A stretch of 64,000 bases of DNA from a virus (lineage: Duplodnaviria > Caudoviricetes), in IMG/VR virus record IMGVR_UViG_3300021254_000021, positions 32,001-96,000 of that record; one strand, 5' to 3'. The notes below the pieces were generated by a model. The model was not told the DNA's origin and did not search any database. It saw nothing but the letters and a program-made list of their open reading frames with translations. A program made the position numbers and the translations under genes. Of this stretch, positions 14,168 to 39,957 are shown piece after piece; position 1 is the first letter of the stretch, and every line of letters begins with the position of its first letter.

Positions 14168-16387
14168 ATGGTAAAACTAAGAAGAGTAAATGAGGCAGTG
14201 GATTCCAGTCATACCTCAATTATGTTTAATATGGCAAATTCATTTGCCGATAAAGGTTGGTATAAATTTCATGTTAAAAATTCTGACATTTCAGGTTGGG
14301 TATCTAAAGCAAATACCAGAGACAGCATAGAAGAGAAGGGTGGGGCTTATGTTACCACTGATGAAGTGGAATTAAGAGAGAGTCCTTCTAAGAATAGTGA
14401 TGTCATAGAGACAGTAAGACCAAACACTACTCTCCTTTTAGAGGATGAGAAAGATACTATTGATGCCACTTATTCGGACAAGGGTATGACGGTAGCTTTT
14501 AAATTAACAGAGAATGATGACCCTCATAATACTAAAGAAGGGAAGGCTTGGTTAAAAGCAAATAAAGGTAAAGACTTCATTTATAAAGGTGCGGGTCTTA
14601 CAGGCAATCTACGTTTTAACATTATTAAAAACAACTCAGGTAAACGTGAGCTTATTGTTGACAATGTTATTGTAGGCAAAGACAGCAATCTTTTAGTCTT
14701 ACAAAAGAAGTTAGTAGCGGATAAACCAAAAGAAGGAAGACTTACTGGTAAAAGTGTAAAGCCTTTTGAAAAACCACAGCCTTACACTATCACTAATTTA
14801 GCTACACCCACATTCCAGTCTTATATAAAGAAAACAAAAGACAATATTATAAAGGATATTGCTTTAGCTCTTAGTGAAGTGGTAGAGCTTCCTGCTAAAG
14901 AATCCACTACATACTTCATTGATTATGATGAGAATTTTAATCGTATTAATGAAGGGTACATTACAGAAGCAGAGACAGAGGAAGATCAGAAAAAGATTAG
15001 TTGGAAGGATGAGGATGTCCAGAAGGCTATCACAGATACCATTAAAGGGTTGGAGATTAATAAATCTAAGACAACCGATAAAGAGTTAATCTTTAAGTAT
15101 AATGGTAAGAATGGTTCTCTCCATCTTCAAGGTTATATGCTTGTTTTAGACACGGATACCGATGATGATATTCCCGCCACGAATTACCCTGTTAAAGACA
15201 AGAATAATCTTACCATAGAAAATCTCTTAGATACGATTAAAACAGTATTCTCTCGTAGGGAAGCTCGTTTAGCGGACAGTGACAAAGAAGAAGTAAAAGA
15301 GACTAAGAAAGAAGCTCATAAATGGGATGATGATATTCAGTCCGATGAATTACCTAGTCCACATGATTTAGATGCCTTTTACATTCTTAAGGGAAAGGTG
15401 GATGAGGAAGGTCACGATTTCTTTGAGGAAATCGTAGGGGATGAAAAAGGGTATATCTCTAAGGATGAAGCAATACAGATTGCCACAGACCTTCGCTATA
15501 ATGATCCTGACAGTCTCTTTGGTGTAACAGAATTGGTGGACATTGCTTACTTTATGAATGACACCTTCTGGGATGCTTTAGATGAAGGGGAGATAAAAGT
15601 TATTTGGAACTCGGTGGATTTAAGCAATAGTGGTATGGATACTATAGAGGAAAAAAGACTGGATGAAGCTAATGAAGATCATCCCGTAATGGAAGATCCC
15701 ACCATTGACAATTCCCCAGTTTTCCAAGATGTTGCTAAGTCCCGCTTTATGGAAAAGCTGTCCAAGTCTTTAATTATAGCCCCAGAATATAAAGGGGAAT
15801 GTAATTGCTTGGATGCCTGTGATGGTGATTTAGTTTGGCTTTATCTTTCACCTTCTTATGCCATAGAGCAACTCTCTGACATTGTTCTACCTCTCTGTAT
15901 TACAGGTAGAAAGGTGACAATGCCTGTTGTAGAGATGCCAGATCCTAATGCAGTATTTGGTGGTGATTTCTCTGAAAATGCTTTAGCTGAATACGACAAT
16001 GCTGTACAGGATTATATGCTTAATGATGCACCTATGTCTGATATAGCTATGTTGGATGTGGATAATGCAGATGATGTTAAAGCACAGGTTGTTGACTTAG
16101 TTAATACTATGGCAGACAGCTATCAAAACAAGAAAATGGAGCTGTCTGATGCACTAGATCTTAAAGGTGATTCTCTTTTAAAAGAATCCCGCTACTTTAT
16201 TGTTCCTAGTGACACAGATTTAACTTCGGATAAAGAAGTTAATAAACTGACTCCACTGGGTTATACCGATTTAGCTATAGCTCAGAATGAATTAAATAAC
16301 TTGGCAGACAGTGGTCGTTATGACTTTGATCTTAAAATCTTAGACACCAATTTCTCAAATAACAAAGAGAAGTGGACACTCGTATAA
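14168..16387 (+). CDS. putative internal head protein with SH3b-like segment
   Basis: MVKLRRVNEA leader; GWYKF..SGWVSK and VELRESPSKNSDVI SH3b-like motifs; acidic C-terminal half; upstream of head genes. Confidence 0.55.
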   Translation: MVKLRRVNEAVDSSHTSIMFNMANSFADKGWYKFHVKNSDISGWVSKANTRDSIEEKGGAYVTTDEVELRESPSKNSDVIETVRPNTTLLLEDEKDTIDATYSDKGMTVAFKLTENDDPHNTKEGKAWLKANKGKDFIYKGAGLTGNLRFNIIKNNSGKRELIVDNVIVGKDSNLLVLQKKLVADKPKEGRLTGKSVKPFEKPQPYTITNLATPTFQSYIKKTKDNIIKDIALALSEVVELPAKESTTYFIDYDENFNRINEGYITEAETEEDQKKISWKDEDVQKAITDTIKGLEINKSKTTDKELIFKYNGKNGSLHLQGYMLVLDTDTDDDIPATNYPVKDKNNLTIENLLDTIKTVFSRREARLADSDKEEVKETKKEAHKWDDDIQSDELPSPHDLDAFYILKGKVDEEGHDFFEEIVGDEKGYISKDEAIQIATDLRYNDPDSLFGVTELVDIAYFMNDTFWDALDEGEIKVIWNSVDLSNSGMDTIEEKRLDEANEDHPVMEDPTIDNSPVFQDVAKSRFMEKLSKSLIIAPEYKGECNCLDACDGDLVWLYLSPSYAIEQLSDIVLPLCITGRKVTMPVVEMPDPNAVFGGDFSENALAEYDNAVQDYMLNDAPMSDIAMLDVDNADDVKAQVVDLVNTMADSYQNKKMELSDALDLKGDSLLKESRYFIVPSDTDLTSDKEVNKLTPLGYTDLAIAQNELNNLADSGRYDFDLKILDTNFSNNKEKWTLV

Positions 16388-16398
16388 GGAGAGGAAAA

Positions 16399-17097
16399 AT
16401 GATTCGTTATAAAAAAGAACGCAAAGAGATCGTTGAGATGAACTCCAAGGATTTATTGGAACAGTACATTAAACTGTATCGGAGAGAATTACCTAAGAAC
16501 TTTGGAGTTGCCTTAGATAGAGTATCTACTACATTCTTTGAATTTAGTTCCTTAGACAACCCAGAGGACACCGTTCGGCTTCCTTATTCTATATTGAGTA
16601 GTGGTGTAGTAGAAATGGATATGACACCTCTTGGTGGTAGAAATGCCGCTCCTATGACTCTACGAGCCGCTTCTGGAAATAGATGGGATATGTATGAAAA
16701 CATTAAATATCTTGGCAGAGCTTTAAAAAGCCACTTTGCAGAGAATAAGAAAGAAGAGTCACGTAGATATGAAAGTAGAACTACGGATGTTTGGAAAGAA
16801 ATTGTGGCTAAGATAAAGAAGGATGCTATAGCCAGAAAATTGGTGGTTGCAGACAGTAAATTAAACAGCCTTACACTTGCTGATAAGAATGATCCTGATA
16901 AAGCAGTAAAATTAGACGTTGATTTAATGAATACTGGTTCGGGTGAATGTATTGTCAGCTTAGGTAAAAAGACATGGAAGATGGGTGATACTCAAATCCG
17001 TGATAGAAGCATGAAAGGTGGAACAAAGACACCTGATATGAGCAAGCAGATTGAGAACATACTTGATATGGTAGAGTTTACAATGGGTCGTAAGTAA
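16399..17097 (+). CDS. hypothetical protein, probable head-internal
   Basis: GGAGAGG RBS before ATG 16399 (start reassigned from 16372); basic N-terminus MIRYKKERKE. Confidence 0.6.
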   Translation: MIRYKKERKEIVEMNSKDLLEQYIKLYRRELPKNFGVALDRVSTTFFEFSSLDNPEDTVRLPYSILSSGVVEMDMTPLGGRNAAPMTLRAASGNRWDMYENIKYLGRALKSHFAENKKEESRRYESRTTDVWKEIVAKIKKDAIARKLVVADSKLNSLTLADKNDPDKAVKLDVDLMNTGSGECIVSLGKKTWKMGDTQIRDRSMKGGTKTPDMSKQIENILDMVEFTMGRK

Positions 17098-17123
17098 AAC
17101 AAATTAAATAAACTCCTCTAAAG

Positions 17124-17156
17124 AAAAGCCGCAGGGATAACCCTTGCGGCTTTTTT
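17124..17156 (+). terminator. rho-independent terminator
   Basis: AAAAGCCGCAGGG-ATAA-CCTTGCGGCTTTTTT. Confidence 0.8.
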
Positions 17157-17200
17157 ATTATCTAACATTTAGTATGTTACTCTCTTATTGGAGATTGTTT

Positions 17201-18139
17201 ATGCTTAAATTAAAAAGAGTACAGGAAGCAAAACAGGTTGGAATATTATACCATGTATGTGGTTTATCCTCAGCCTTATATAATATTAAACATAACTCCA
17301 TTACTCCCAGTGGTGCGGCCAATGACAGAAATGGGAAAAGGACTATATCCTTTACCAGAGACAAACTTTATCTAGTAGATACAGTCTCTTTAACTTCACC
17401 CATTCTTTTCCAGTTTGTTATAGACGGGGACAAGCTATCTGAAAACAATAAAATAGCTCCCTATGCCGCACCAGATTATAGTGAGGAATATTCTGAAAAA
17501 GAAGAAGTGATGGAAGGCTCACTTAAAGATCTAAAGAAGTTCACTAAGAGTTTGAATATCCTCATTATAAAAGACATCTTTACCCGTGCTAATCCAAGAA
17601 TCTTTAAAGGAATAGCAGACAGCTTAGAAGAGATGAAAGGTAGTGGGATACCGATGGATATAGTCTCTATCTCTGGCAGAAGAAACCCAAAGATTGTTAA
17701 GACGGATTTACCAAAAGATATAGATGCTTTTATAGCTCTATGTAGAAAGATTCATGCTTATGACAGCCCTAACATCTTCATTGCTATAAATAGTATATGC
17801 AAACAATTCTTTGGTAAATTAGGGGATGTTACAACAGGTAAAACAAAGATTACAGTAGAGTTTGATGAGGATCAGTCATTAAAGAATGTGGGTGATTTAA
17901 TTAACGCTATTGTAGAGATCATAGAAGAAGAATTAGAGAGCAAGAAACCAACCGTATCAACCTCTCCAAATAAAGAATCTACAATGTCTCTCTCTAAATT
18001 ACTAAACAGTAAGACTATGAAAATAGAGTCTTTAACTGTTTATCCCATGTTTGATTACATGACACATAAGACTCCTATTATTGCACTGAGCTTAGTAAAA
18101 CCAGATACTAAAGCCATATATATCAACTTTCCATTATAA
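17201..18139 (+). CDS. putative virion-packaged ADP-ribosyltransferase-like protein
   Basis: Start reassigned to ATG 17201 (GGAG RBS); MLKLKRVQEA leader; LYHV ... ISFTRD ... IDGDKLS ... SEKEE fits the H-S-E ART-fold motif order. Confidence 0.5.
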   Translation: MLKLKRVQEAKQVGILYHVCGLSSALYNIKHNSITPSGAANDRNGKRTISFTRDKLYLVDTVSLTSPILFQFVIDGDKLSENNKIAPYAAPDYSEEYSEKEEVMEGSLKDLKKFTKSLNILIIKDIFTRANPRIFKGIADSLEEMKGSGIPMDIVSISGRRNPKIVKTDLPKDIDAFIALCRKIHAYDSPNIFIAINSICKQFFGKLGDVTTGKTKITVEFDEDQSLKNVGDLINAIVEIIEEELESKKPTVSTSPNKESTMSLSKLLNSKTMKIESLTVYPMFDYMTHKTPIIALSLVKPDTKAIYINFPL

Positions 18140-18209
18140 TAGCTTAGAATAAATCTATGCACTAACAATCTATTTTAATGTTAGTCTTTTTAACGGTAGG
18201 AGTAAAAAG

Positions 18210-19442
18210 ATGAGTAGTAAATTGGTAACAGAATCCTTAATATCGGAGATGCGTGTTGTCGATAAAGACTCAAGCTCCCCTGCTCTTTGTATTATGGAAG
18301 GGCCATGTATGGAGTTTGATAAGGTCAATAGAAATAACCGTATCTATTCCAAGAAGTTGATTGAGGATAGAATCTTAAATAACTCAGTCGTTCAGGAAGC
18401 ATTAAAGAATAAGTCCATGTTAGGTGAAGGTGGACATCCTGAAACCAGAGTAGAGATTTCTTATCCAGATGTAGCTCTGTGTGTAGAGAAGCTATGGATT
18501 CCAAAAGATTCTAAGAATCTTTTATGGGGTCGCTTTGCTATCTTGGATACACCAGTAGGACGTATTTTAGAAACTTTAGTAAAATACGGTTCTTCTATTG
18601 GTATCTCTGCAAGAGCTATGACTGATTCCGTCGAAAAGGATGGCCATGAGGTTATATCAGAAACAACTTATGACCTCATTACTTTTGATGCTGTTCCTGA
18701 TCCCGGCTTTAAATCAGCCCGTCTTTCTAAAGTAGAATCTGCGATGCGTCCCATAGATTCTATGACTATCTCTGAACTTCAATCCGCCAGTTCCTCTTTA
18801 AAATCTGCAAAAGTACAGGCTTTTGAAAGCAGAATCCGAATGATTGATAAAGAGATAGAAAGAAGAAAGGCAATGGATATTAGCGTTGAAATCCAACAGA
18901 TAAAAGAGTGCCTTTCTTATATAAAGAAAGCGTACTCATTATCTAAAGTAGAGGATGTAGATTCTCTAATAGCTATGTCCAATACCTTTATAAATGAGTC
19001 TAAGATTAGACTTGAAGTATTTAAACGAACAAATGCAGAGTTAAAAGAAGAAATGGAAAGACTAACGTCTGAAAATCGGGCTCTACAAGAGGAAATAAGT
19101 AGATTGGATAATCTACTTTATACCCGCTCTTTATCACCCGATTATCTTACACAGTTAGACCATCTTAATACTCTGGTAAAACGAATAGAATCTTTACAAA
19201 CAGATAAATCCTCTATCAAAGAATCCAGAACATCTAAGGAATTTTCCAATAGATATTGTGTTAAAGAGAATAGAATTAGAACGCTTTTATCTAATTCTAA
19301 TGAAGGGTCTGTTTGTTCTCGTGACTCGCAAAAGATTGCTCAGTTTGAGCGTGAGCCAGATATTTTAATTCATTCAGAAGAATCGTCGCAAGAAATAGAG
19401 GATTCATTAACACGCACAATCCGTGCGCAAATAAGGAGATAA
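18210..19442 (+). CDS. prohead protease (T4 gp21-like) with C-terminal coiled-coil extension
   Basis: NRNNRIY, LGEGGHP (His), ILDTPVGRIL, GISARA (Ser), TFDAVPDPG (Asp); directly upstream of the capsid gene. Confidence 0.9.
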   Translation: MSSKLVTESLISEMRVVDKDSSSPALCIMEGPCMEFDKVNRNNRIYSKKLIEDRILNNSVVQEALKNKSMLGEGGHPETRVEISYPDVALCVEKLWIPKDSKNLLWGRFAILDTPVGRILETLVKYGSSIGISARAMTDSVEKDGHEVISETTYDLITFDAVPDPGFKSARLSKVESAMRPIDSMTISELQSASSSLKSAKVQAFESRIRMIDKEIERRKAMDISVEIQQIKECLSYIKKAYSLSKVEDVDSLIAMSNTFINESKIRLEVFKRTNAELKEEMERLTSENRALQEEISRLDNLLYTRSLSPDYLTQLDHLNTLVKRIESLQTDKSSIKESRTSKEFSNRYCVKENRIRTLLSNSNEGSVCSRDSQKIAQFEREPDILIHSEESSQEIEDSLTRTIRAQIRR

Positions 19443-19445
19443 CAA

Positions 19446-20891
19446 ATGAGCGTTATTACAGAAACAGACAAAAAGTATTTGCTTGAAGCATGGAAACGTA
19501 ATGTCCAGTCCGTGAATAAAATCCGTCCAATGGATGAAGCAGGACAGGTTCATTTAGCAAAGGTTCTTGAAAATACCAAGAACGCTCTCCGTGAACGTGG
19601 TATTTCCAATGAAAACTTTGTTCGTGGCGGCATTACTCAAGGTGCGGATATTTCTTGGTTTCCACCCCATGTCATTAACATGGTTTCTGCCCTCTATGCT
19701 TCACAGATCATTGAAGAGCTAGTTTCCATTCAGCCTCTTGACAATCCTATCGGACAGATCGTTTTCTTACAGTATCTCTATGGCGATACCCGTGGTGATA
19801 ATACTGTTGGTCAGGACATGATCAATGAATTTGGTGCAATGCAGAATCAGGATCAGCGTAATCGTTACGCTTCCCAGATCATTGACGGTGAACCTGCTAC
19901 CTCTACTGGTGGTAAAGACATTGATATGCACCTTCAGAACCTTCCAGTTCTCTTTGATGCAATGCACCCAATTGACCTCATTGATAACACCAATTCTGGT
20001 AACGTTTATCGTGTTAAGAAAACTTCTGACACCACCATTTCAGTTGTTATGGTTAATGCTAAGGGTTATGAAGAAGGTACAAACCTTCTGGATACCACTA
20101 AAGAAGTCATTGTTAAGCCCGATGCAGGTCACTTTAAATTCTCTTTGCTCTCTGCTATTGAATCTGGTGTGAATGCTCGTTATTCACAGGATCTTTCAAG
20201 CGGTCCCTCAATGGCAGGTCGTGTTACCCTTCACCTCAAAACCGAATCTGTTAAGGCCGAGCCACACAAACTCCGTGCCCAGTACGTCTTTGATGCAGGG
20301 TACAGCTTGGCAAAATCACACGGCATTGATATTGAACAGTGCCTCATTGATGCTTGCACAACTGAAATCCGCCATGAACGTGATATGGAAGTTATTAACA
20401 TCCTTATGCACCAAGCCCTTTCCTCAGTCCAGTGGAATAGATTAAACTCAAATTATGTTTCACAGCGTGAACATAATGAGAGCTTCCTCACCACACTGTT
20501 TGCCGCCGCTTCCGAAATCAGCTATCGTACAAAGAAAGTTTTCGGTAACTGGGTTGTCGTTGGTAAAGAAGGTCTTGACACCATTATGTCAGTTGGCGCT
20601 CCTCGTTTCCAAGCAACCGCTCTTAGCAACCTCAATGGTCCAACTGTAGTAGGTACACTTGATAACGCTATGAAAGTTATCTTCTCACCATACGTTGCCC
20701 GTAATGAGTTCCTAGTCGGTTACAAAGGTGATAGCTATATTGATGCGGGTTTCATTGTTGGTGACTATTTGCCGATCGCTTCCACTGATTTCATTACATT
20801 GGACGACTTCGTGAGCCGCAAAGGCTTCGTAAGTATTTGGGGTTCACGTATGGTCAATCCCAATATGTACGTAAAGGGTACAATTGTATAA
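19446..20891 (+). CDS. major capsid protein (T4 gp23-like)
   Basis: LAKVLEN, VSIQPLDNPIGQIVFLQYLYG, VKAEPHKLRAQY, EIRHERDMEVI, VGYKGDSYIDAG; high-expression codon usage. Confidence 0.93.
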   Translation: MSVITETDKKYLLEAWKRNVQSVNKIRPMDEAGQVHLAKVLENTKNALRERGISNENFVRGGITQGADISWFPPHVINMVSALYASQIIEELVSIQPLDNPIGQIVFLQYLYGDTRGDNTVGQDMINEFGAMQNQDQRNRYASQIIDGEPATSTGGKDIDMHLQNLPVLFDAMHPIDLIDNTNSGNVYRVKKTSDTTISVVMVNAKGYEEGTNLLDTTKEVIVKPDAGHFKFSLLSAIESGVNARYSQDLSSGPSMAGRVTLHLKTESVKAEPHKLRAQYVFDAGYSLAKSHGIDIEQCLIDACTTEIRHERDMEVINILMHQALSSVQWNRLNSNYVSQREHNESFLTTLFAAASEISYRTKKVFGNWVVVGKEGLDTIMSVGAPRFQATALSNLNGPTVVGTLDNAMKVIFSPYVARNEFLVGYKGDSYIDAGFIVGDYLPIASTDFITLDDFVSRKGFVSIWGSRMVNPNMYVKGTIV

Positions 20892-23951: not shown

Positions 23952-24040
23952 ATGGTTAAGCTAGTTAAAAAAGAGTTAGTTAGTGAGGCTCTAAACGTTG
24001 GGTGAAGAAGTACAGCACTAAAAATAAAAGCCCCAATTAA
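23952..24040 (+). pseudogene. chimeric remnant: MVKLVKKE leader joined to a nuclease C-terminus
   Basis: 23952-24005 encodes MVKLVKKELVSEALNVG*; a different frame at 23987-24040 encodes GSKRWVKKYSTKNKSPN*, matching GSKRWVKKYV* at the end of ORF 21115. Confidence 0.6.
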
Positions 24041-24110: not shown

Positions 24111-24500
24111 TTACTCTACTGCCTGTTTAAGAATAAGAAATACATATTTTGGCATTATCTCTAATACAGAAGTAATATAGATCTCTAATGAAGGATCTGT
24201 AGAAACATTATAAGAGAGAGGCTCTATAAGATTTTCTGGTAGCTTCTGATAAATTATACCAGACAAATTCTCTGGTAAAGAATCTACCTGTTCTTGAGTT
24301 ATTCGCTCTCTATCTGACAGGTCTACGATATTTTTATTTAGATTCACTACTACGGCTAAACCTTTTTCTCTCATCTCCTCTACTTCTTCTATAGTAGTAG
24401 GAAGTCTTGAGGAACTTTTACCAAAAGAGAGTCTACCTTGAGGATCGGCGGTAGGTTTTTCACTACCAAATGCTAAATCTAAAACGTATGGAAATGACAT
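24111..24500 (-). CDS. hypothetical virion protein, inverted paralog of 13686..14075
   Basis: 129 aa, same N- and C-terminal motifs (ILKQAV[DE]); AAGGAG RBS and TATCTA on the minus strand. Confidence 0.75.
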   Translation of the reverse strand: MSFPYVLDLAFGSEKPTADPQGRLSFGKSSSRLPTTIEEVEEMREKGLAVVVNLNKNIVDLSDRERITQEQVDSLPENLSGIIYQKLPENLIEPLSYNVSTDPSLEIYITSVLEIMPKYVFLILKQAVE

Positions 24501-24609: not shown

Positions 24610-27600
24610 ATGAGACCTAATGATGGTAGAGAAGCCGCGTATGTTCGTTCCCGCGTTATAGATAAAAGCCTAGTTCCTGCTTCCACGGAATATCTCCCTT
24701 TATTTACCTGTTTAGCACCAAAAGGCACATCTACAGAACCCGTACTTATTCGTCAGGTGGATGATCTTTTAAATGAGTTTGGTGATCCTTCTATAAACCC
24801 TATTTTATACAGGGATTTAATTACCATTAGAGATTTTGTAAAGGGTGGGCGATCCTGTTGGGTGAATCGTGTCCCTGTAAATGCACAGAAGTTCCACTAC
24901 TATTTTTATCTTAACAATACTCTACCTTTGGTCTATATGCTTTATTTTACTTATCCTAAGTGGAATACACTTACAACAGAGGAAAAGCGTATAGCTAATG
25001 CAGGTTATCTCTATGGTGGTTCAAGCGTTATCCGTTTTCAGGATCATTTAGGTAATTACCTCGATGTAGACATCTTTACTGAAATATATGATATTGTTTC
25101 AAAGAAGGATGAGATATTTGAGAAAACGGGGTGGGTGGTAGATGTACCAGAAAATCCTCTTATCCGAATTGCAGAAAAGCATAACTCTTTACAGCAGTTC
25201 ACCACTTCTGTAAACAAGGGTAGGAAATACATTACTATGAGGTGGCAGGGTACATACTCTACACCAGAAAAACATACTTTAACCTCTACTGTTTATGTAC
25301 AACCTGTTGGTTCTGATGGGAAAATTATCAGAGATTCCGAAGGTCATTTAATTAGACCTGATAATCCAAATAACATCTCCCTTTTTAAGCAGACGGTTGT
25401 ACCTGTAAAGGTATTGGAAGATGTTGTAGATGCCTATATTGGTACACCAGAACATACCTCTTATACAATACCAAGTGTGGGATACTCAAATATTTATAAA
25501 CAAACAAATCATCTTTATTCTAGGAAAACGTCTATAACAGTAGAAAAACCAAATCCAGAACCTCACATTTACTATTTAGAACCTGCTCAAGAAGGTTCTA
25601 ATACCGTTATCATAGGTAAAACTCAAGAGGATGGGGATGGATGGATTTATCTTAATACAGTTAATGGTAGTACATCTTCCAGTACACGTGTAGATAAAGT
25701 TACTCTAAAAAATTCTCTTGTTGCTGATGAAAGGTATAAAGATTGTTTAGAGTTTACAAATGAAGTGAATAAGAGAATAAAAGTTAAAGATGATTATAGT
25801 CAAGATACTATAACAGTAAGTCCATTAGATATTCTTATTCATAATAAAGCTATTTATAAAGTATATTATACTCCTAATTATGTTGTAGACCCTAAAGACC
25901 CTTCTTCTAATTACAACAAAGTGGATGACGCTACTTATGTTTGGAAATTTCCGAATTTATCCACAGAAGGATTAACTCTTACTTTTTCTCCTAGTACATA
26001 CCTAGGGTATTCATATCTTATGTACTCTATTAGTGTAGAATGTACAGAGTATTATACTGGTCCCACTACTATAGAAATAGAACCTTTTGATATATTTGAA
26101 GGAGAGAAGATTCCTTATGATACAAATACACATACATACTTTCCAATAAACACGGAATCAAACCCAGACCTCCTTAGTTTAACCTTTACAGCATCTATTG
26201 GATACTACGTTTTACGAAATAATCCAATACCTTTCCCAGTTTTACAGGATAACCATATTAAGATTGGTATGGCTAATTCTAGTGGTACAGGGGATATTTA
26301 TCAGGAGATAAAATTACCCGCAGGTACATATAACCAGTCAGGTGCAAGGTATATCATAGATAAGTTAATCCATGTCTTTTATAAAGCTACTAGATACACT
26401 GAATCTAAACTAAGAAAAAGGAAGGTGTATTCTGAAATACCTACGACAGATGAGGAATGGGAAGATTATCTTGTTCCAGAATCCGAGTTAATAGATGGTA
26501 CGGAATACTATACCAATGAGAAAGACTCTACCTCTATAGAAAGGATAGAGCCTAATTGGCAAACATTTATTTATTCTTCTTCATCTCCTAATATACCTAA
26601 AGCTCCACTATACAGACTCTTTTATACCTCTACATCATCCTCTAATTATTATTATAATGCGGCTTTTGAAATATGTGATAGCAATTATAGTCTTATTTAT
26701 TCTATTGGAGCAAACTTAGTCTATGTGGACGACCGTATTATAAACAACTTGATGTCAAGAACATTATATAGGGGAGAAGAAGCAGAAGATTTCTCTGTTT
26801 ATTTCCCTTATAGCTATTGGTCTGAGATAGAGGATTATCTTAAAGATAATTTCGACATAGAGATGCACTACCCAGATGGGTTCTCTTCAAGTGAGACACA
26901 TCTTACCTCGTTTGACACAACTTTAATACCAGAATTAAGTGCAGAGGATCTTTTACTCTTTAGTATGGATTCGATGCTCTATCAGGACTCAAATATTTTG
27001 ACCATAACCTCTGTGACTAAATTAAAACCCGCTTCGGCAGGACTGCGTATTAAGTATGTTTTACAGGGTTATGACTTTTCCTACACCAACTTCTTAATTG
27101 AGGAAACAATTACTCTGCCAGATCACTTTACCAATCAGCAATTTGCTGATGCAATGAATGAGAATCCATACGTTAATGTTACTGTGGATGATCCAGAAGC
27201 AGACAATATTTACAGGAATGTTATAGCAGGGTATTTTAGTAACTTAGCCTATACAGTTCACTATGACTTGGATGTAGAAATAACATTAGAGGATTACCAG
27301 AAAGCAATTAAGGTTTATTCAGATCCAAAGTATTATGGAAACTTTATTGCTGATTTAACATATCCTTTAGTAAGGTGGTATGAAAATCCAGACCCAGATA
27401 GTGAGCCTTATTATGAAATCTACATCATGCCAGAAAATGAACGTAGGGCGATTCATTGGACAATGAAGGAGATTGCGGCAACACGTAAGGATTTAATCTG
27501 CATATTCTCAACACCTAATTTACCTTTAGATCAAGCCTGTAATTGGGTAGCCGCTAAAGGTGATTATGCAGATTATTGGGAATACGGTACATCTCAAACC

Positions 27601-28683: not shown

Positions 28684-31284
28684 ATGAATCCAAATCAAGG
28701 TCGTGAAGCGGCGTATGTAAAATCCAGAGTTAAAGACCTTAGTCTTATTACCAATACACCAGACTATGTAGGGTGCTTTGCTTGTATTACACCTAAAGCT
28801 CATTCTTCTTTAGATGAGCCAGAAAATTATACCATTGTTGACGGTGTTAAAGTCTACCTTCCTCAGTTAGTTAGAGATGTCGATACTCTGACAGAATTAT
28901 TTGGTGATCCTAGAATTGATCCTGCTACCTATAAAGACCTTTATGCTATCAGAACAATCGTGCAGAATGGTTTTGCCTGTCATATTGCAAAAGTTAAATC
29001 AGGTGAACCCTATACTGCTATTGTAAACTCCTCTGGTCTTTTTGAATCAGCAGGTTGTATTCCAAATACTCAGTTAGATGATGAATCAGAGTTAATTCAG
29101 CTTAAAGCAGACTTACAAGACATTAACTTATTTAATGTAGAGTCCTCTATTGTAGGTACAAACAAGCTGTCTGTCGCCCTTATTCCTTTAAAACCATTCT
29201 CAATCAACCAAGTTGTTTTAGAGATTCACTTTACCTCTAAAGCTACATCATCTTCTGATGAAGTAGAGGTTTCCTCTGCTAGAATAATGCTTACACCCGA
29301 TACCAAGAATGCGGATTTGATTAAAACAATCAATGGTTATCTTGGTGGAGACATTAGCTTCCAGTTACCAGACATTCTTAATGATGCCACGTTTGCTACG
29401 GTTACAGATGCCAGTGAGGTGATTGAACCTGATTCCTCTACTGGTGAAAAGTATTACTGCATTGCGAACGTCCTTCTCTATATCTGCGGACTCTATGTTT
29501 TAAGAAAAGAGGGTGATCACTTTGACAGCACCGATCTTCTTATGGACAATATGGAACTGTGTACAAAAGAAGTGTCTGGTGTTACCAAGAGAGGTTTGGA
29601 AGCTCTTAAAGTGGAATGGACAAATGGCTATGTTGGACATAACAGAACAACATTTATATGCAAAGTGAATAAAGGTGAGGATGCTACCCTTTCCGTTTCA
29701 CAGGCAGATTATGTCCGCTCTTTAAATCTTTATAGTGATCCTAAGTACAATGGTTGCTTTATCTCTGATTTAAGCTCTGATGTCACAGTCACAATAGAGA
29801 AAGATAAACCCACTTATAAAGCAACCAACTATATAGCTAATAGCTATAATGAAGAAGCTCTGCCCGAAGATTACCCAAAGACAACAGGTTATCTCTTTGT
29901 TAAGAGAGGTGACGAGGATGATCCTACCACTACCTATGACAGCATGAAGTATATTGCTGATAATACCGCTTACTTAGCAACACGTGGTCTGGATAGACAG
30001 AAATTCACACAGACCTCAGAAACAGAGGGTGATGTCACCGTTTATACCTATACACCAGATCCTTCAGGAACATTCGTAAGAAAGTATGAGTCTAATCCCA
30101 CCTTAACAGAGAGATTTGCTCCCGATACGGAAAACTCCAACTTTGTTACTCTGGAGGCAGGGGTAAACGACAAGTATAATAAACAGCTCTATAACCCTAA
30201 TGGTTATACCAGAGTTAATTTAACTTCTGAACCATCCCCGGCTACAGACCAAATCTTTTTTGTTAAAAATGAAGATGGTACAGCTTATGTGGAGAGAATT
30301 GTAGCTAATCCAAGTGCAGAACCACCAGTAGAAGGTAATGATAAAGAAGAAGTGACAGAGATGGTGGAAATGCCGTCCGATGATAGACGTGGTTTACACT
30401 ATATCATTAAACATGTAGCCGCTCTTAGAAAAGACTTAACCTGTGTATTTACCACCCCATACAAACCTTGTGACATAGAACAGTCTATAGTACAAAAGAC
30501 ACTTATCTATGAGGATTTGTTTGATTTAAATAGAGCCTGTAATTGGGTTGCCGTTAAAGGTGATTTTACAGACTTATTTGAATATGGTAATTCTCAGGCT
30601 GTCGATTACTCCGAACAGGCTTTTTACTGTGAAATGTACTGGTCATGGCTTAAATGGCGTGTAGCTAAATTAGTTAATGGTTTGGCCACTGGTTCTTCCG
30701 TTGTAATCATGCCACCCACACCTTTCGTTATTTTGAATGCTTTAGCCTCTTATCGTACAAAAGGTTCGTTCTACCCTGTTGCAGGTGATCAAGGTGGTGT
30801 CCTTCCTGATTCCTGTACCATTCTACAGAATCCTTCTACCAAAGGACAGAGAGACAAACTAATCTCTTATAGAATTAACCCCATTTATGATACTGGTTTA
30901 CGTGGTATTCAGATTTACGGTAATGATACCCTTAATCCACAATACACCGATCTTTCAGCCGCTCATATAGCCCGTACCCTCGTTCAGATTCGATCCAGAG
31001 TTGATGCTTACTCAGAAACCATTAAGTTCTCACTCAACGATAAGTACACTTGGGGTACATGGATCAATTACGTCTCTACCAAGATTCTTGATCCTATCCG
31101 ATCCTTGGGTGGATTACAGTGGTATCAGGTCGATATGGGTTATAACACCACTACACGAGATGAGATAGCACAACGTAAGATTCGTGGCATGATTAGCCTA
31201 CAGTTTACGCAGGCTCTTGAAATAATCGACTTAGAATTTGTCGTTTATTCTTCTGCTCTGGATATGGAAGCTACTACAACGTAA
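28684..31284 (+). CDS. tail sheath protein paralog 2
   Basis: Same N-terminus (GREAAYVKSRV) and C-terminal sheath motifs as paralog 1. Confidence 0.9.
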   Translation: MNPNQGREAAYVKSRVKDLSLITNTPDYVGCFACITPKAHSSLDEPENYTIVDGVKVYLPQLVRDVDTLTELFGDPRIDPATYKDLYAIRTIVQNGFACHIAKVKSGEPYTAIVNSSGLFESAGCIPNTQLDDESELIQLKADLQDINLFNVESSIVGTNKLSVALIPLKPFSINQVVLEIHFTSKATSSSDEVEVSSARIMLTPDTKNADLIKTINGYLGGDISFQLPDILNDATFATVTDASEVIEPDSSTGEKYYCIANVLLYICGLYVLRKEGDHFDSTDLLMDNMELCTKEVSGVTKRGLEALKVEWTNGYVGHNRTTFICKVNKGEDATLSVSQADYVRSLNLYSDPKYNGCFISDLSSDVTVTIEKDKPTYKATNYIANSYNEEALPEDYPKTTGYLFVKRGDEDDPTTTYDSMKYIADNTAYLATRGLDRQKFTQTSETEGDVTVYTYTPDPSGTFVRKYESNPTLTERFAPDTENSNFVTLEAGVNDKYNKQLYNPNGYTRVNLTSEPSPATDQIFFVKNEDGTAYVERIVANPSAEPPVEGNDKEEVTEMVEMPSDDRRGLHYIIKHVAALRKDLTCVFTTPYKPCDIEQSIVQKTLIYEDLFDLNRACNWVAVKGDFTDLFEYGNSQAVDYSEQAFYCEMYWSWLKWRVAKLVNGLATGSSVVIMPPTPFVILNALASYRTKGSFYPVAGDQGGVLPDSCTILQNPSTKGQRDKLISYRINPIYDTGLRGIQIYGNDTLNPQYTDLSAAHIARTLVQIRSRVDAYSETIKFSLNDKYTWGTWINYVSTKILDPIRSLGGLQWYQVDMGYNTTTRDEIAQRKIRGMISLQFTQALEIIDLEFVVYSSALDMEATTT

Positions 31285-31425: not shown

Positions 31426-33273
31426 ATGGGTAAAGATTATCGACATTTTACAAAATATCCAACGTGGTTTATAGAGGAATTAGTTAATAAAGAAGATCGT
31501 GAGGATGCTAAGAAAGGTATTTTACCTCGTTCTAAAAAGGTTACTCTTTTCTGTAAAGATCATGGCTCTTATCTCCAAACACCCTCGAACCACATAGACT
31601 TTAAAACTATGTCTTTAAAGGGAGGTTGTCCGAAATGTGGGAGACGCCTACAAATAGAAAAGAGTAAGATAACTAAAAGAAAAGTTAGAAAGTCTTATCC
31701 AGAGTGGTTTATAAATGAGTTAGCACATGATGAGGATAGAATTAAAGTGAAAAATAAGGAGCTTTCTACGGGAGACAGAGTAGATTTTCTATGTCCTGTA
31801 CATGGTATTTACAGTATGGCAGTCTTTAATCATATTCGTTTAAAGACAGGATTAAGACTACGTGGATGTCCAGAGTGTGCAAAAGTAGATAGGAGAGAAC
31901 ACTGTATTAAAACAAAGATGGAAAATAGACCAGACTATCCTGTTTGGTTTATAGAAGAATTATTTAAAGAGGAAGATAAAGAGCGTGCTAGGAATAAGTG
32001 TTTAAGGTATAATGAAAAGGTTTCTTTTTATTGTAAGGATCATGGTGTCTATACACAGATAGTAGCAGATCATATAGAGTATAAGACAGGGGAAAAGAAA
32101 CAGGGATGCCCAAAGTGCGGAATAATAAAAAGAAATTTAAATAAGAAAGAGAGAAATAAACAGAAAAGACCAAACTATCCAGACTGGTTTATTGAGGATA
32201 TAGCTAGTGAGGAAGATAAAGATAGGGCGAGAAACAAAGAACTAACGTGGTCTGATAAGGTAAATTTTATTTGTCCTATACATGGTGTGTATAAACAAAG
32301 AATAGATGCACACATGAACACTTCTACTTTAACACCAAAACAAGGTTGCCCTTCTTGTGGAATCCTTCTTTCTAAAAGTGAGATAGAAATATCTGATTTT
32401 ATTAAATCACTAGGGGTAGAGATAGAAAAAAGAAATAGATCTTTGATTAAAGAGAAAGCGTCTACGCGATTTTTAGAATTGGATATTTTTATTCCTAATA
32501 AAAATATAGCTATTGAGTATAATGGAAGTTACTGGCATGGAGAGTTGCATAAAAAAGATAAGAAAAGTAATTTGAATAAATTCTTACTCTGTGCAGAACA
32601 AGGTATTCGCTTAATCTCTATTTATGATCGTGATTGGAAAGAAAACAAAGATAAGATTTCTAACTTTCTAAAAGATTTGTTAGTTCCTAAAATTAGAATT
32701 TTCGGTAGATGTACAGAAGTTAGAACCCTTTCCTTACAAGAAGCAAAGAAGTTTTATGATGAAAATCATTTAAAAGGGAGTGGTAATCACAATAAAATTT
32801 CTTATGGTCTGTTTTATAATGGTAGTTTGGTATCAGCAATGTCCTTTTCTAAACCGAACTTTGGGAATCAAAGAAAGGTAGAGTGGGATTTGACACGTTA
32901 TTGTGTTAAGTTTGGTTATTCTGTTATAGGAGGTGCTGAAAAACTCTTTAAAACATTTATAAAAGAATTTAATCCTTCTAATGTAATAACTTATTCTGAC
33001 AATGATTACTTTACAGGAGAAGTCTATTCCAGACTAGGTTTTCTTTTGGATAAGATAACTAGTATTCCTTATTACTGGGCTAAGAGTGATCACATTTTTC
33101 TAAATAGAGAGGTGTGTCAGGTACATAAACTAAAAGAAAAGTATCCTGATATTTTCCAGAAATCTATAGATGAGAATGCATCTAACAAAGAGGATTATAT
33201 CATGCACACTTTAGGTTATTATAAAGTGTATCGTTGTGGTAATAAAAGGTGGATTTGGAAATCCACTATCTAA
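31426..33273 (+). CDS. 4x Zn-finger repeat / Vsr-like nuclease / Mom-like GNAT protein
   Basis: Four ~77-aa YPxWFIxEL..CxxHG..H..GCPxC repeats; ELDIFIPNKNIAIEYNGSYWH; ENHL, DLTRY, GGAEKL, TYSDND, GEVYSRLGF. Confidence 0.75.
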   Translation: MGKDYRHFTKYPTWFIEELVNKEDREDAKKGILPRSKKVTLFCKDHGSYLQTPSNHIDFKTMSLKGGCPKCGRRLQIEKSKITKRKVRKSYPEWFINELAHDEDRIKVKNKELSTGDRVDFLCPVHGIYSMAVFNHIRLKTGLRLRGCPECAKVDRREHCIKTKMENRPDYPVWFIEELFKEEDKERARNKCLRYNEKVSFYCKDHGVYTQIVADHIEYKTGEKKQGCPKCGIIKRNLNKKERNKQKRPNYPDWFIEDIASEEDKDRARNKELTWSDKVNFICPIHGVYKQRIDAHMNTSTLTPKQGCPSCGILLSKSEIEISDFIKSLGVEIEKRNRSLIKEKASTRFLELDIFIPNKNIAIEYNGSYWHGELHKKDKKSNLNKFLLCAEQGIRLISIYDRDWKENKDKISNFLKDLLVPKIRIFGRCTEVRTLSLQEAKKFYDENHLKGSGNHNKISYGLFYNGSLVSAMSFSKPNFGNQRKVEWDLTRYCVKFGYSVIGGAEKLFKTFIKEFNPSNVITYSDNDYFTGEVYSRLGFLLDKITSIPYYWAKSDHIFLNREVCQVHKLKEKYPDIFQKSIDENASNKEDYIMHTLGYYKVYRCGNKRWIWKSTI

Positions 33274-33313: not shown

Positions 33314-33757
33314 ATGCGTAAATTAAAAAGAAATGAAACAAGAACAGTGACAGAGGGTATCTCCCCTTCTGCTATTGGTCGTAGTAAAGAGATCGTGGAT
33401 TGGGCTATTGACTACATTAAAGACACCCTTCCTGATTATGAGGGAGAAACTGTTTATGGTAGTGATTTAGGCGCTACCATTACAGAAGGCCCTAATGCAA
33501 ATGGGGTTTATGAAGAAGATGCTTGGGGTTTCATATCCAAGCATATCAATGATGCCCGTGATGAGTACGAGTATGAGAAGGATAACTTTGGTGAGGTTCT
33601 GCATAACCCGTTTGAAGACCCAGATGCTTTTGTTGTCTGTATGTTAATCAACACAGTGGAAGGTGTTTTGTCTCAAGTTCCATTGGTGGAGGAGAACTGG
33701 AATGACGAGTTCGAGCTGACTAAAGAGAATATAGATGCTATCTTAAAAGCTCTTTAA
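33314..33757 (+). CDS. small acidic protein, probable capsid cargo
   Basis: AAGGAG RBS; MRKLKRNE leader then a strongly Asp/Glu-rich body. Confidence 0.65.
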   Translation: MRKLKRNETRTVTEGISPSAIGRSKEIVDWAIDYIKDTLPDYEGETVYGSDLGATITEGPNANGVYEEDAWGFISKHINDARDEYEYEKDNFGEVLHNPFEDPDAFVVCMLINTVEGVLSQVPLVEENWNDEFELTKENIDAILKAL

Positions 33758-33785
33758 TTACAACTATATCTATCTTAGTAAAGAG

Positions 33786-33831: not shown

Positions 33832-34488
33832 ATGGTTAAGTTAAAGAGAGTCTGTGAGAGATATGATCATATCCGTTCTTTAGAGAACCTATTAAAGTTT
33901 TACTCTAGGAATCCAGATAATTGGGATAAAGAGTGGTCTGTCAACCCTTATTATCTTGTAGATTTAAAGAATTATGGTGCAGGTCATTGTGTTTGTGGAC
34001 ATCCTATTCGTTACCAATACCAATTTTTAAATACGGTAACAGGTAGAACATTCCCTGTTGGATCAGAATGTGTCCATCTTTTACATCTCGCCAAATTTGA
34101 CGAGACAGTGGATAAACTGGAAAAGATTGCTCAAATGGCTAATGCTGAAATAGACACTTCTTTAAAGGCTGAGGACTTTATTAAAGCGTATAAGAAAATA
34201 TACGATATGGCTGGTGTCTCTGCTTTAACAAGCTATGGACAGTATAAACCAGATCCCACAGATCTATTTATCTATCGTAACTCTATTGGTAAACGTAAAT
34301 ATAAAGAGTATGCAGAGAAGATGAAAGCGTTTATGATAGAGTTGCATGATGAAGCTAAGAAGTTTGTCAACAGTATGGAAAGAAAATCAAAACCTGTGAC
34401 ACCAGATCAGGTACAGCAGATTGTCGATGATAGCGCCGCAGAGATGTTACGTTTTGCACAGGCCAAACAAAATAAACTTCCATTCTAA
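33832..34488 (+). CDS. Zn-binding hypothetical protein, probable capsid cargo
   Basis: MVKLKRVCE leader; HCVCGHPI...VGSECV metal-binding pattern. Confidence 0.6.
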   Translation: MVKLKRVCERYDHIRSLENLLKFYSRNPDNWDKEWSVNPYYLVDLKNYGAGHCVCGHPIRYQYQFLNTVTGRTFPVGSECVHLLHLAKFDETVDKLEKIAQMANAEIDTSLKAEDFIKAYKKIYDMAGVSALTSYGQYKPDPTDLFIYRNSIGKRKYKEYAEKMKAFMIELHDEAKKFVNSMERKSKPVTPDQVQQIVDDSAAEMLRFAQAKQNKLPF

Positions 34489-35055: not shown

Positions 35056-35091
35056 AAGGGAAAGAGATTCCTCTCTTTCCCTTTTTCTTTT
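35056..35091 (+). terminator. terminator-like hairpin directly upstream of the third nuclease gene
   Basis: AAGGGAAAGAGA-loop-TCTCTTTCCCTT plus T tract. Confidence 0.6.
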
Positions 35092-35099
35092 ATCGTATT

Positions 35100-36923: not shown

Positions 36924-36932
36924 TAATCAGAT

Positions 36933-36938
36933 TATCTA
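36933..36938 (+). promoter_or_regulatory. TATCTA candidate late promoter (example; about 15 intergenic copies)
   Basis: Also at 1084, 13637, 14107, 17159, 28355, 28621, 33267, 33767, 34498, 39995, 62074, 62483, 63435 (+) and 24553 (-). Confidence 0.65.
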
Positions 36939-36989
36939 TCTTAATTAGAGGATTTGGTTTCTCTTACCTTTAATTAAGGAGATAATATT

Positions 36990-37553
36990 ATGGCTTATGA
37001 TACATATTCAGGTGCATCACATTTTGCGAACGACTCCAATTATGAAGTCCAACGTGGTAATCATTACGAGATTGTTATAGACTTGGATGCCTTACAGCCT
37101 AAGTTTGATTCAACTTATGCAGAAGCTATTCGTCTTTGTTGTACTTCTGCTCCTGTTCCTGATATTTCTATTCAAGCACAGCCTTTACGTCATGGTAATG
37201 AAACAGTAAACGTTGCAGGTTCTCCTTCATGGGGAAACATGTCCATTAGTGTTTATGATGTTATTGGACGTGATATGGCTACTTTATTACAGGAATGGTT
37301 TTGGAGAGTCTTTAATCCTGCTACACATACAATGGGTTTAGTTACATCATATAAAACCTCTGCAACACTTTATCTGTATTCACCAGATGCTTCTACCTTT
37401 AGAAAATGGATTTGTTATGGTGTTTTCCCAACAAACATAAACTTTGGTAGTTATTCTGCTGACAGTCAGGGCGCTCCAGTTTCCATTACTATGAATCTTG
37501 CAGTGGATAGAACTGAACTAGTTTCCGCAGGTGGTACAGCTATTGGTTTTTAA
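36990..37553 (+). CDS. tail tube protein (T4 gp19-like)
   Basis: QRGNHYEI, SAPVP, GNETVNVAG, ISVYD, LQEWF..V, GVFPTNI gp19-type motifs; 187 aa. Confidence 0.88.
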   Translation: MAYDTYSGASHFANDSNYEVQRGNHYEIVIDLDALQPKFDSTYAEAIRLCCTSAPVPDISIQAQPLRHGNETVNVAGSPSWGNMSISVYDVIGRDMATLLQEWFWRVFNPATHTMGLVTSYKTSATLYLYSPDASTFRKWICYGVFPTNINFGSYSADSQGAPVSITMNLAVDRTELVSAGGTAIGF

Positions 37554-37578
37554 TAAAGGTTAAAGGGAGATATAAGTT

Positions 37579-39957
37579 ATGGTTAAATTAGTAAAACAAG
37601 AATCTTCCTTAGTTGAGGAAAAGTTTGAAGGTGGGCAGGGGCAGTTATGGAAGTCTGGTGCTAAAGGCACAGCTACCATGTTTGTTTCTTGGGTTAGCAA
37701 TGTGATTAAAGCTAACTCTAATAATGTTTCTGCTATAAAGACCCGTAGAGAGTATGTGACACAGGAAGATGGGTACGAGACTCTGAATATTTCCTATGGT
37801 CGTAAAGATACTTTACCATTAGACATTCGTGTCAGTGTTCCACAGACAGGGAAATCTTTAATTAATTTAAAGTATCGTAAAGAGCCTAAAGCCGCTATTT
37901 GGACAGAAAGGAATTTCTCTATTAAAAATCCGATGTCTCTCTCTGTTGATCCTACTACTAAGAAGCTGATTTCTGTTGTATTTACAGGCCCACAATTTTC
38001 CTTTGCAGGACAGGGTAGAAAACTAATAAATATCCCTGGGTATGAAGATGCTCTCTCTGAAATAGAGAGACCTATAATTGAAGCGGCTAAGATTTTAGAC
38101 AAGTTTGATTCAGAGATGTATAAATCCCGTAACTTAGTAGATTTTGATTCTACACCAGAGTTACAGGAATTAAAGGAGATGTATAGTGACTGGGAGATGG
38201 ATGTTGATGCTTCTAAGTTAGCTTCCAGTAATAAGGTTACATACATCTTTAATCATCCCACAGATCCAGACTACAATTTTACCGTTTATTTCCAAGATGA
38301 GGGTGGCTCTGAATATAAGATTTATGCCACTTATCGAAATCAGGAAATGAGCCTAGCTAAATTAGCCAAACTCCTTGAAAAGGAAAGAGAAAGATTAGCA
38401 GATCAGAAAGATAAATATTCTGATTATGCTAATGAATTTGAGTCTCGCAAGTTAGCAAAAGAGATGAAGGTATCAGGTGCTTCCTCTATTTCTATGTTGG
38501 ATGACCCTAAGAAACTGGATGCTTTTGTAAAGAAGATTGGGGATGCCTTAGAGGATTTCTCTTTAGCCAGATGGGCTAATATAGACATCACACAGAATGC
38601 AGACGGTTCTGAGGATTGGGATTTAATCCTCACTACACAGCATACTCTTAAATCAAACAGTCCTGCGGGAATTATCTCTTGGCGTATTGAGCCTAATTTA
38701 CCCTTACAGTTTTATCAGAAGGATAAAGACATTCATGGTGAACCCACCACGAAGGTAACATATAAGGGTAAAATAGCCGCCACAGATATGAAAACCAACT
38801 TTGGCTACACCCCTTCTATCAGGGATGTGGAGCTTAATTCCCCTGCATTCTTTAAAGAAATAACGAATGCGGCAGAAAAATTCTTGGAAGACTTTGGTGC
38901 TTATAATAGGCCGTTAGCTACTATATCAGACATAGACAATCAGATCATTGGTGGTAAAGACTGGATTGTTTCCTATGATAAGCCCGATTACAACTTAGCT
39001 AACTGGGCAGATCGTACTTTAGGCAAGATTGAGCCTGAATTAGAGAAGTTACAGGAAACTTATAATCTTTCTTTAGAGAAGAAGGTGGAGGAGATCGAGA
39101 CAGATGATTATGTCGATTTCCTAGCACAGTATGGTGTAGTTGGTGATAATCCTCAAGCAGATGCCGCAAGGGATATGTCTGGTAAATTAGTCTTTACAGG
39201 TTCTTATGTGGACAAATCCTTTACAGACCATTTACTTGAATTACGTGTCAACTTTGATCGTGGTGACAAGTTTGTTGTTTGGATTCGTCCAGACCTTAAA
39301 GGAAGTGCTAATACCAAAGCAGAAGGTCAGTCTGATCTTTCCTTCTTAGAGAAATGGGCAAAGGATAATGTGGCTTTACGTACAGCACAGAAAACCTCTG
39401 ATAATTTCCGTCAGGCTATTTCACAAGAGTTAATTAACTTAGGTGCGATAGAGGGTCATGTTAAAGGTACATTTGACATTTCCACATCTAAGATTAAAGG
39501 CATTACCATTGATCTGAAAGTGACAAACAATCAGATATTGGTCAATGCTTATAGAGATGGAAAAATTGTCGATAAGATTACCATAGACATTGCTCCATTT
39601 GCAGAGAATCCTGTCAAGGTTGCTAAGAATATCCTTAATCTCTTATCCAAGCACATTAAGGAATCCTACCCGAGTATTGACAGACAGATGCCTAATTTAA
39701 ATCGTTATTGGGATGCCCTGTTTGATAAACTAAAGGTAGAGAGTGGTATTCAAAAGCAGTCTAATCTTAACACCCATTATCTTCAAGTTGGATCAAAGAG
39801 ATGTAAGGTTGAGTTTGGACCTTTAGGACAAGTTAAATTAACTACGCTCTTAGGTAAGGAAGTGGTTGAGGAGCAGTTCAACGCAGATCCCCGCTACTTC
39901 ATTGAAGATAAAGAGAAGATGCAGAATCTTTTAAATGAGTATCGAGCCAGATTTTAG
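37579..39957 (+). CDS. large hypothetical protein, probable internal head protein
   Basis: MVKLVKQES leader; GGGAG RBS. Confidence 0.6.
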   Translation: MVKLVKQESSLVEEKFEGGQGQLWKSGAKGTATMFVSWVSNVIKANSNNVSAIKTRREYVTQEDGYETLNISYGRKDTLPLDIRVSVPQTGKSLINLKYRKEPKAAIWTERNFSIKNPMSLSVDPTTKKLISVVFTGPQFSFAGQGRKLINIPGYEDALSEIERPIIEAAKILDKFDSEMYKSRNLVDFDSTPELQELKEMYSDWEMDVDASKLASSNKVTYIFNHPTDPDYNFTVYFQDEGGSEYKIYATYRNQEMSLAKLAKLLEKERERLADQKDKYSDYANEFESRKLAKEMKVSGASSISMLDDPKKLDAFVKKIGDALEDFSLARWANIDITQNADGSEDWDLILTTQHTLKSNSPAGIISWRIEPNLPLQFYQKDKDIHGEPTTKVTYKGKIAATDMKTNFGYTPSIRDVELNSPAFFKEITNAAEKFLEDFGAYNRPLATISDIDNQIIGGKDWIVSYDKPDYNLANWADRTLGKIEPELEKLQETYNLSLEKKVEEIETDDYVDFLAQYGVVGDNPQADAARDMSGKLVFTGSYVDKSFTDHLLELRVNFDRGDKFVVWIRPDLKGSANTKAEGQSDLSFLEKWAKDNVALRTAQKTSDNFRQAISQELINLGAIEGHVKGTFDISTSKIKGITIDLKVTNNQILVNAYRDGKIVDKITIDIAPFAENPVKVAKNILNLLSKHIKESYPSIDRQMPNLNRYWDALFDKLKVESGIQKQSNLNTHYLQVGSKRCKVEFGPLGQVKLTTLLGKEVVEEQFNADPRYFIEDKEKMQNLLNEYRARF

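Follow-up and report, generated by a model that had tools for sequence, protein, structure and literature searches.

In phage T4, a capsid-targeting sequence (CTS) is found on the internal proteins IPI, IPII and IPIII and on the Alt propeptide, from which it is removed by the prohead protease gp21 (PMC9026906, PMC3012670, PMC12373910). This protease recognizes Leu/Ile-x-Glu and cleaves behind the Glu. For packaging, the ten N-terminal residues of IPIII are enough, residues 4 and 7 serving targeting and residues 8 and 10 processing (PMC9026906). In the literature searched, the signal has been described for T-even phages only (PMC12373910, PMC3012670). We have analyzed a stretch of 64,000 nucleotides, referred to as the window, that corresponds to bases 32001-96000 of the 252,372-base record IMGVR_UViG_3300021254_000021 of an uncultured gut jumbo phage of the Caudoviricetes; positions refer to the window unless marked as genome positions. 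Many otherwise unrelated proteins of this phage start with the same type of short basic peptide ending in Glu, and sequence comparisons indicate that this leader is likely to be the lineage's own T4-CTS-like packaging and maturation leader, outside the T4 consensus.

The leader resembles the T4 CTS in that it is an N-terminal peptide of about 10 residues that is present on unrelated bodies, ends in Glu and is often followed by Ala or Ser. Further parallels to T4 are the gp20, gp21 and gp23 homologues, the presence of a predicted ADP-ribosyltransferase (ART) among the putative cargo, comparable to T4 Alt, and the scattered accessory loci. In contrast to T4, where 3-4 proteins carry the signal, there are 24-34 carriers, with bodies of up to 792 aa and with a different late-type upstream element, TATCTA. 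Similarities also exist to the Agrobacterium jumbo phage Atu_ph07 (MF403008), namely T4-like head genes, a Glu-ended and lineage-specific leader on about two dozen scattered genes and ART-fold cargo, but the leader consensus of Atu_ph07 differs, with an aromatic residue or Leu at position 3 and an acidic residue or Gln at position 5. Like the jumbo phages phiKZ and SPN3US, the phage probably combines many head proteins with cutting after Glu by a gp21-related protease, and in these phages some head proteins are ejected and most SPN3US head proteins are uncut (PMC10052503, PMC5694885). The phiKZ and SPN3US propeptides, however, are mostly long (20-254 aa), carry Ala-x-Glu and have no common short leader. 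Within an incomplete coverage of the literature, we found neither a description of this leader consensus nor a metagenomic CTS survey, and no paper describing the Glu-ended leader of Atu_ph07.

A preliminary description of the window had listed six leader starts, and all six were confirmed. Five belong to intact genes encoding proteins of 739, 312, 147, 218 and 792 aa, each with a ribosome-binding site, whereas the one at 23952 is a remnant. A looser match at 16399 also held up, since its partial orthologue in the relative L011 bears a canonical leader. The corresponding features are the following.

14168..14194 (+), leader of 9 aa, Glu9 followed by Ala, at the head of a 739-aa protein (14168-16387)
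16399..17097 (+), degenerate leader on a protein of 232 aa that also contains a basic-Glu-Ser site at aa 122-126
17201..18139 (+), leader (Glu9 followed by Ala) and a domain with a predicted ART fold, one of four paralogues in the genome
23952..24005 (+), 17-codon remnant consisting of the leader and the first residues of an ART-family-like gene, followed by a terminator-like hairpin
33314..33757 (+), leader on a 147-aa acidic helical protein, disordered at aa 1-12, with a probable cut at Glu14
33832..34488 (+), leader (Glu9) on a protein of 218 aa that has two Cys-rich motifs
37579..39957 (+), leader (Glu8 followed by Ser) on a 792-aa protein, between the tail tube and tape-measure-like genes

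The genome-wide scan of N termini that had been proposed, conducted on the 294 genes predicted by our own gene caller, showed that the motif is real and that there are more carriers than had been listed. The consensus is basic-aliphatic and consists of Met, Val/Leu/Arg, Lys, Leu, Lys/Arg and Arg, with Glu following 1-5 residues on. A strict pattern is found at the start of 14 real genes, one of which joined an initial 13 when its start was corrected, and a medium pattern, which defines the core carriers, at the start of 24; another 10 genes with looser forms were chosen by eye, giving about 34 carriers. By chance, 0.012 strict and 0.07 medium matches are expected from internal positions of the 294 genes, and 0.04 and 0.23 from 5000 shuffles of the N termini, with maxima of 2 and 4. 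Since the leader codons vary synonymously at all positions but Met and the DNA upstream of the carriers is unrelated, selection acts on the leader peptide, and an origin from a DNA repeat was ruled out on the same grounds. Leu4 is encoded by TTA in 20 of the 24 core carriers, compared to 42% genome-wide, and the leader region is A-rich.

The bodies had been described as lacking similarity to each other, which is true for most carriers; once leaders are removed, the sole strong similarity is within one family of four, made up of the 17201 protein and three paralogues elsewhere in the genome. The carriers are indeed scattered, but over the whole genome rather than among the structural genes only. 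None of the carriers has a transmembrane segment, and a general C-terminal tag was looked for and not found. Taken as a class, carriers show no enrichment of internal Glu sites (12 observed, 9.9 expected). Relatives were compared over stretches of about 20 kb each. In close relatives (79-82% capsid identity), 17 of 59 genes at four loci start with the leader, which was found in none of the 34 genes at the loci of two distant relatives (43-47% capsid identity); one of these two loci has a different, coiled-coil type start. Pfam and PHROG provided no usable family for the five intact window carriers or for most carriers outside the window, the exceptions being SprT-like, ankyrin, SWIM and DUF3293 proteins.

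The carriers also have an upstream element in common. The hexamer TATCTA, a candidate late promoter, precedes 15 of the 20 carriers with an intergenic gap, compared with 6 of 12 among the structural genes and 21 of 123 among the rest (P=5e-7). The structural genes form the independent part of the comparison because the carriers were in the training set. Carriers far from the structural block (genome 122697, 134683, 200228 and 243986) each have their own TATCTA. Conversely, a long, conserved early-type element composed of a C-rich and an A-rich part, with sites outside the window, was detected at 25 of the 123 other or accessory genes versus none of the 20 carriers. The leader itself is absent from all identified sheath, tube, wedge, baseplate, tape-measure-like, neck, portal, ligase, recombinase, replication and nucleotide genes. 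In the window, the hexamer is found at the following sites.

14107..14112 (+), TATCTA, candidate late promoter upstream of 14168
17159..17164 (+), TATCTA upstream of 17201
33267..33272 (+), TATCTA upstream of 33314
33767..33772 (+), TATCTA upstream of 33832
36933..36938 (+), TATCTA upstream of the tail tube gene (36990), 25 bases after which 37579 starts

The family of four offers the most direct comparison with the T4 signal. A model built from the paralogue at genome 172286 (pLDDT 83) aligned to Tpt1 (7yw4) with a Z score of 11.6 and an rmsd of 2.3 over 110 residues, and to DarT (7yk3, 7omv, 8baq) with a Z score of 9.9 and an rmsd of 3.8 over 139 residues; nearly all of the best 50 structure matches were ART-fold proteins. 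The model thus places 17201 and its three paralogues in the ADP-ribosyltransferase fold, and the His, Ser-x-Thr and Glu-x-Glu motifs, which are candidate catalytic residues, are invariant in 9 family sequences. The fold is like that of the Tpt1/DarT superfamily, but sequence identity is 9-19%. There was no match above threshold in Pfam or PHROG, and tblastn of the ART body against cultured phages found none, so that profile and fold searches were needed.

A profile without leaders retrieved 1,942 proteins, of which 134 top matches with a short N-terminal extension were analyzed. In 133 of these, the extension ends in Glu immediately before the domain. Among 126 extensions, 49 were of the basic type, 39 of a coiled-coil type, 3 of the T4-CTS type and 35 of other types, with Ile/Val/Leu at P3 (aliphatic-x-Glu) in 96 of 126 junctions and Ala/Ser/Gly at P1' in 118 of 126. 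On the tree of the ART bodies, which has few columns and many open forks, leader types are clustered with about nine changes, at least 5 of which, in the case of the basic type, are required by strong branches. In L023, a T4-like contig of 238 kb with T4 late promoters, the ART domain is encoded among neck, terminase and sheath genes and carries a T4-type leader, and two unrelated neighbours of this gene share its T4-type start. This indicates that the basic leader holds the place of the classic CTS on the same cargo; in our survey, T4-like leader sequences were found only on homologues in other phages. Bacillus phage SP-15 ART homologues also share a Glu-ended N-terminal peptide.

Two further observations were made on this family. 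The coiled-coil leader, of about 20 residues, is a second leader type that is found in more distant relatives (L014:21148, L025:3646 and the 39 ART-family matches), and words resembling it are present at the C termini of the late proteins L014:11669 and L014:13859. In addition, the proteins P0087-P0090, P0128 and P0172 (735-2290 aa) have 3-8 ART-like domain matches, the first of which is usually preceded by Glu; these long proteins are candidates for protease-cut cargo polyproteins.

Virion data are available for Atu_ph07, in which fold and profile searches identified an ART-domain homologue. This homologue (39.66 kDa) and its neighbour (30.60 kDa) correspond to gp407 and gp408, as their masses match the published virion list, and the numbering of gp393-394 agrees. 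Both were detected in virions, with 17 and 6 peptides (PMC6102473, Table S5). By mass and order, 138 of the 140 proteins of the virion list were placed on the genome. The list includes 22 of the 23 genes with the Glu-ended leader of Atu_ph07 as compared to 116 of 766 without, and since the pattern was drawn after the list had been seen, the fair part of this test is that only one undetected gene of the genome matches the pattern. If the pattern is widened slightly so as to take in gp407, the list covers 11 of 12 independent body families.

The window encodes a protease and a capsid protein of T4 type.

18210..19442 (+), gp21-type prohead protease (Peptidase S77), triad His76/Ser133/Asp160, with its own Val-Thr-Glu site at Glu8
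19446..20891 (+), gp23-type major capsid protein with a candidate maturation site Asn55-Glu56, the Glu56 codon being at 19611-19613

The claim of a gp21-like protease was well founded: the protein aligns to T4 gp21 (5jbl), and its catalytic triad is intact, H76, S133 and D160 being invariant in all 7 relatives aligned. Its N terminus had been considered a looser match to the leader; it shares the Glu site only, the basic leader being absent. At the C terminus, the protease is extended by residues 175-410, a long stretch that is coiled coil in part, contains several Glu-Ser sites and may be a fused scaffold. In 81 capsid homologues, N55 is conserved in 72 and E56 in 78, within a variable stretch and with basic residues before the site, which lies about 11 residues beyond the position aligned with the start of mature T4 gp23. 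The ends of the leaders resemble this capsid site in that Asn is the commonest residue preceding Glu, and the first Glu is followed by Ala or Ser in 17 of 34 carriers versus 15 of 110 controls (P=3e-5). Cleavage had been anticipated after the Glu of the motif; the first Glu is not always the likely site, which is probably E14 in 33314 and E12 in 23952.

A core protein may be encoded nearby. The product of genome 17676-18170 (L001:17676), two genes past the portal, is an acidic 164-aa protein with repeated basic-Glu sites that ranks 1 of 294 for internal leader-like Glu sites, by a pattern chosen afterwards, and a stretch at its C terminus resembles residues 13-19 at the N terminus of the capsid protein. 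It is a candidate gp67-like core or scaffold protein. T4 core proteins lie at the corresponding place after the portal.

Taken together, the enrichment at N termini, the element common to carriers and structural genes, the absence from identified tail and replication genes and the intact protease lend indirect support to the capsid-targeting function that had been suggested, as do the T4-type leaders that take its place on the same domain in other phages and the detection of a homologue in Atu_ph07 virions. Packaging of the carriers into the head with cleavage appears very likely, and a targeting role of the leader itself is probable. For injection of most carriers, which is suggested by the cargo types, the chances seem about even. 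In the mechanism that we propose, carrier genes would be expressed late, along with the head genes, as their common upstream element suggests. By analogy with T4, the short, basic and unstructured leader would then bind the assembling prohead core, for which the acidic protein at genome 17676 and the C-terminal extension of the protease are candidate receptors. As motif and enzyme suggest, the gp21-type protease would cut behind the Glu that ends the leader, with Ala, Ser or Gly usually occupying P1', at a site of the same kind as that of the capsid protein, and the folded body would be freed inside the head. Many bodies, including the four ART-fold proteins, a SprT protease, an ankyrin protein and clamp-binding-like proteins, may be ejected with the DNA, which is the least certain step, to act on the host or to protect the genome. 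Alternatively, some of the large conserved carriers could be part of the core or of the ejection apparatus. Fusion of a leader to a body would recruit new cargo.

A number of observations weigh against this interpretation. The targeting residues at positions 4 and 7 of T4 IPIII are aromatic, whereas aromatic residues like those of the T4 CTS are missing from the leader, which has Leu or Ile at position 4 and a variable residue at position 7. A strict Ile/Leu/Val-x-Glu within the first 20 residues is present in only 15 of 24 core carriers compared to 64 of 186 controls (P=0.012), and the residue at P1' is a poor one (Arg, Lys, Leu or Asp) in several carriers; since the strict T4 rule fits only these 15 carriers, the cut specificity is probably looser or follows a basic-Asn-Glu variant. 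At 739 and 792 aa, two carriers are of a size unfavourable to passage, unless they are cut or unfolded. Glu also precedes internal ART-domain copies in long proteins, so that its conservation before the domain could be partly structural, although polyprotein cutting fits as well. TATCTA was discovered with the carriers in the training set, and its promoter status is inferred. As for Atu_ph07, the homology is distant (22% identity, hhalign 86%), the leader pattern was drawn with hindsight and whole-virion spectra cannot separate inside from outside. The support for this phage stems from sequences and from the virions of Atu_ph07.

Some of these points would also agree with other explanations. 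The main rival is that the peptide is just a propeptide removable by the protease, with the bodies deciding on packaging and many carriers being structural core or ejection proteins. This agrees with the terminal Glu site being the best conserved part across lineages while the upstream part is exchangeable, with the 14168 and 37579 proteins being large, syntenic and conserved, and with the head propeptides of SPN3US and phiKZ, which have no known common targeting sequence (PMC10052503, PMC9026906). We nevertheless consider it unlikely, because residues 2-6 are conserved on more than 20 unrelated bodies of one genome and a cut site alone needs none of them, because leader types are clustered on the tree of the cargo, with several switches between them, and because T4 assigns targeting and processing to different residues of the CTS (PMC9026906). 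A peptide that docks accessory proteins, uncut, to the capsid, neck or tail outside the virion would be in keeping with the SH3-like module of the 14168 protein and with the blindness of the Atu_ph07 mass spectrometry to inside versus outside. It fits poorly, however, with a leader that ends in a protease-type Glu site, with recognizable bodies that are enzymes of intracellular type (ART fold, SprT, clamp motifs) and with T4-type leaders on the same ART domain, and is very improbable.

The motif might also be unrelated to the virion, either as a by-product of late expression or translation initiation, to which the TTA bias at Leu4, the A-rich region and the common upstream element could be ascribed, or as a cytoplasmic tag for sorting, modification or degradation. 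The synonymous variation, the unrelated upstream DNA, the late tail and baseplate genes that have TATCTA but no leader, and the presence of the ART homologue in Atu_ph07 virions argue against this; it likewise fits poorly and is improbable. A leader for a radical-SAM/SPASM maturase was rejected, as the record, which is an estimated 94% complete, yielded no SPASM domain; the sole radical-SAM gene found encodes 160 aa and lies beside a nucleotide-reductase-like gene, which also counts against a maturase tag.

The individual carriers of the window differ in architecture. In the 14168 protein, leader and conserved core are separated by an SH3-like module (about aa 10-260), with further Glu sites at aa 262 and 267 at the joint of module and core; in the orthologues from L011, L013 and L018, the leader is fused straight to the core, which begins near aa 254-272. 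An ESM Atlas search with this protein gave only an SH3 lead (score 0.83-0.84), and one with the 37579 protein, whose orthologue in L024 also bears the leader, gave no match. The C-terminal part of the 16399 protein is homologous to the L011 protein mentioned above. The remnant at 23952 has a 12-residue leader identical to that of the intact family members P0095 and P0097 and, given this leader and its location near tandem copies in L013, is probably the start of a deleted fifth ART-family copy. In the confident predicted model of the 33314 protein, the leader is disordered and outside the fold. Among its close homologues, the leader varies in length and ends in Glu-Ser/Ala/Gly; several homologues are without leader, two of which adjoin an integrase or a resolvase. 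Such leaderless homologues and the natural fusions of the leader are at most suggestive of a leader that suffices to package a foreign protein. Comparison of this model with solved structures gave nothing above a Z score of 4.8, and T7 Ocr (Z 3.1) was dismissed as not significant. The leader of the 33832 protein is retained in 16 of 16 homologues.

A sliding-clamp-like motif follows the leader Glu directly in the SprT protein (genome 172814, L005:4814) and in the protein at genome 200228 (L007:2228), and is located at the extreme C terminus of the 33832 protein. As no bacterial-type clamp gene was found in the phage record, the host clamp is a candidate partner, to which these three carriers may bind.

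The record has a G+C content of 36%. Apart from the capsid protein and protease, the structural genes of the window include those for a gp19-type tube, two sheath-like proteins and the baseplate, and a gp20-type portal is encoded at genome 15319; a search for the terminase with PF03237 gave no match in the record. The capsid protein is 31% identical to that of the closest cultured phage. Relatives at 79-92% are from metagenomes, one of which is labelled bovine, and sequencing runs containing DNA of the phage derive from goat, bovine and other gut samples. No close relative was found in IMG/VR. The phage encodes an HU-like DNA-binding protein (genome 14751) and translation initiation factor IF-1 (genome 184243), and a host search based on HU gave scattered matches at 40-50% only and named no host. 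Other shared N termini were also noted. Paralogues at 13686-14075 (+), 24111-24500 (-) and genome 170801 have a common 25-residue start of another kind, one of them belonging to the few minus-strand genes of the phage, and the tail-sheath-like paralogues at 24610-28299 (1229 aa) and 28684-31284 (866 aa) have their N terminus in common. The start of a 403-aa gene at 60632-61843 (-) resembles IS605-family TnpB, judged from its sequence alone.

Tentatively, we propose that T4-type heads of many lineages use interchangeable, unrelated leaders (basic, coiled-coil or classic CTS) before one conserved Glu cut site, and that the rumen-type lineage loads 24-34 different proteins per head, among them the four ART-fold enzymes and clamp-binding proteins, and injects them. 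The principle is already known from T4, but the consensus appears to be new. If the proposal is correct, the T4 packaging signal would represent a function whose sequence can change with the cut site preserved, and new leaders could be used to load foreign proteins into large capsids. Atu_ph07 is a cultured system in which the leader rule can be tested. For the phage lineage itself, the injected toolkit would be readable from N termini alone: about one-tenth of the genes, nearly all of which are unannotated, would be classed as capsid cargo by their first ten residues, which would directly yield candidates for injected proteins of counter-defence and host takeover.

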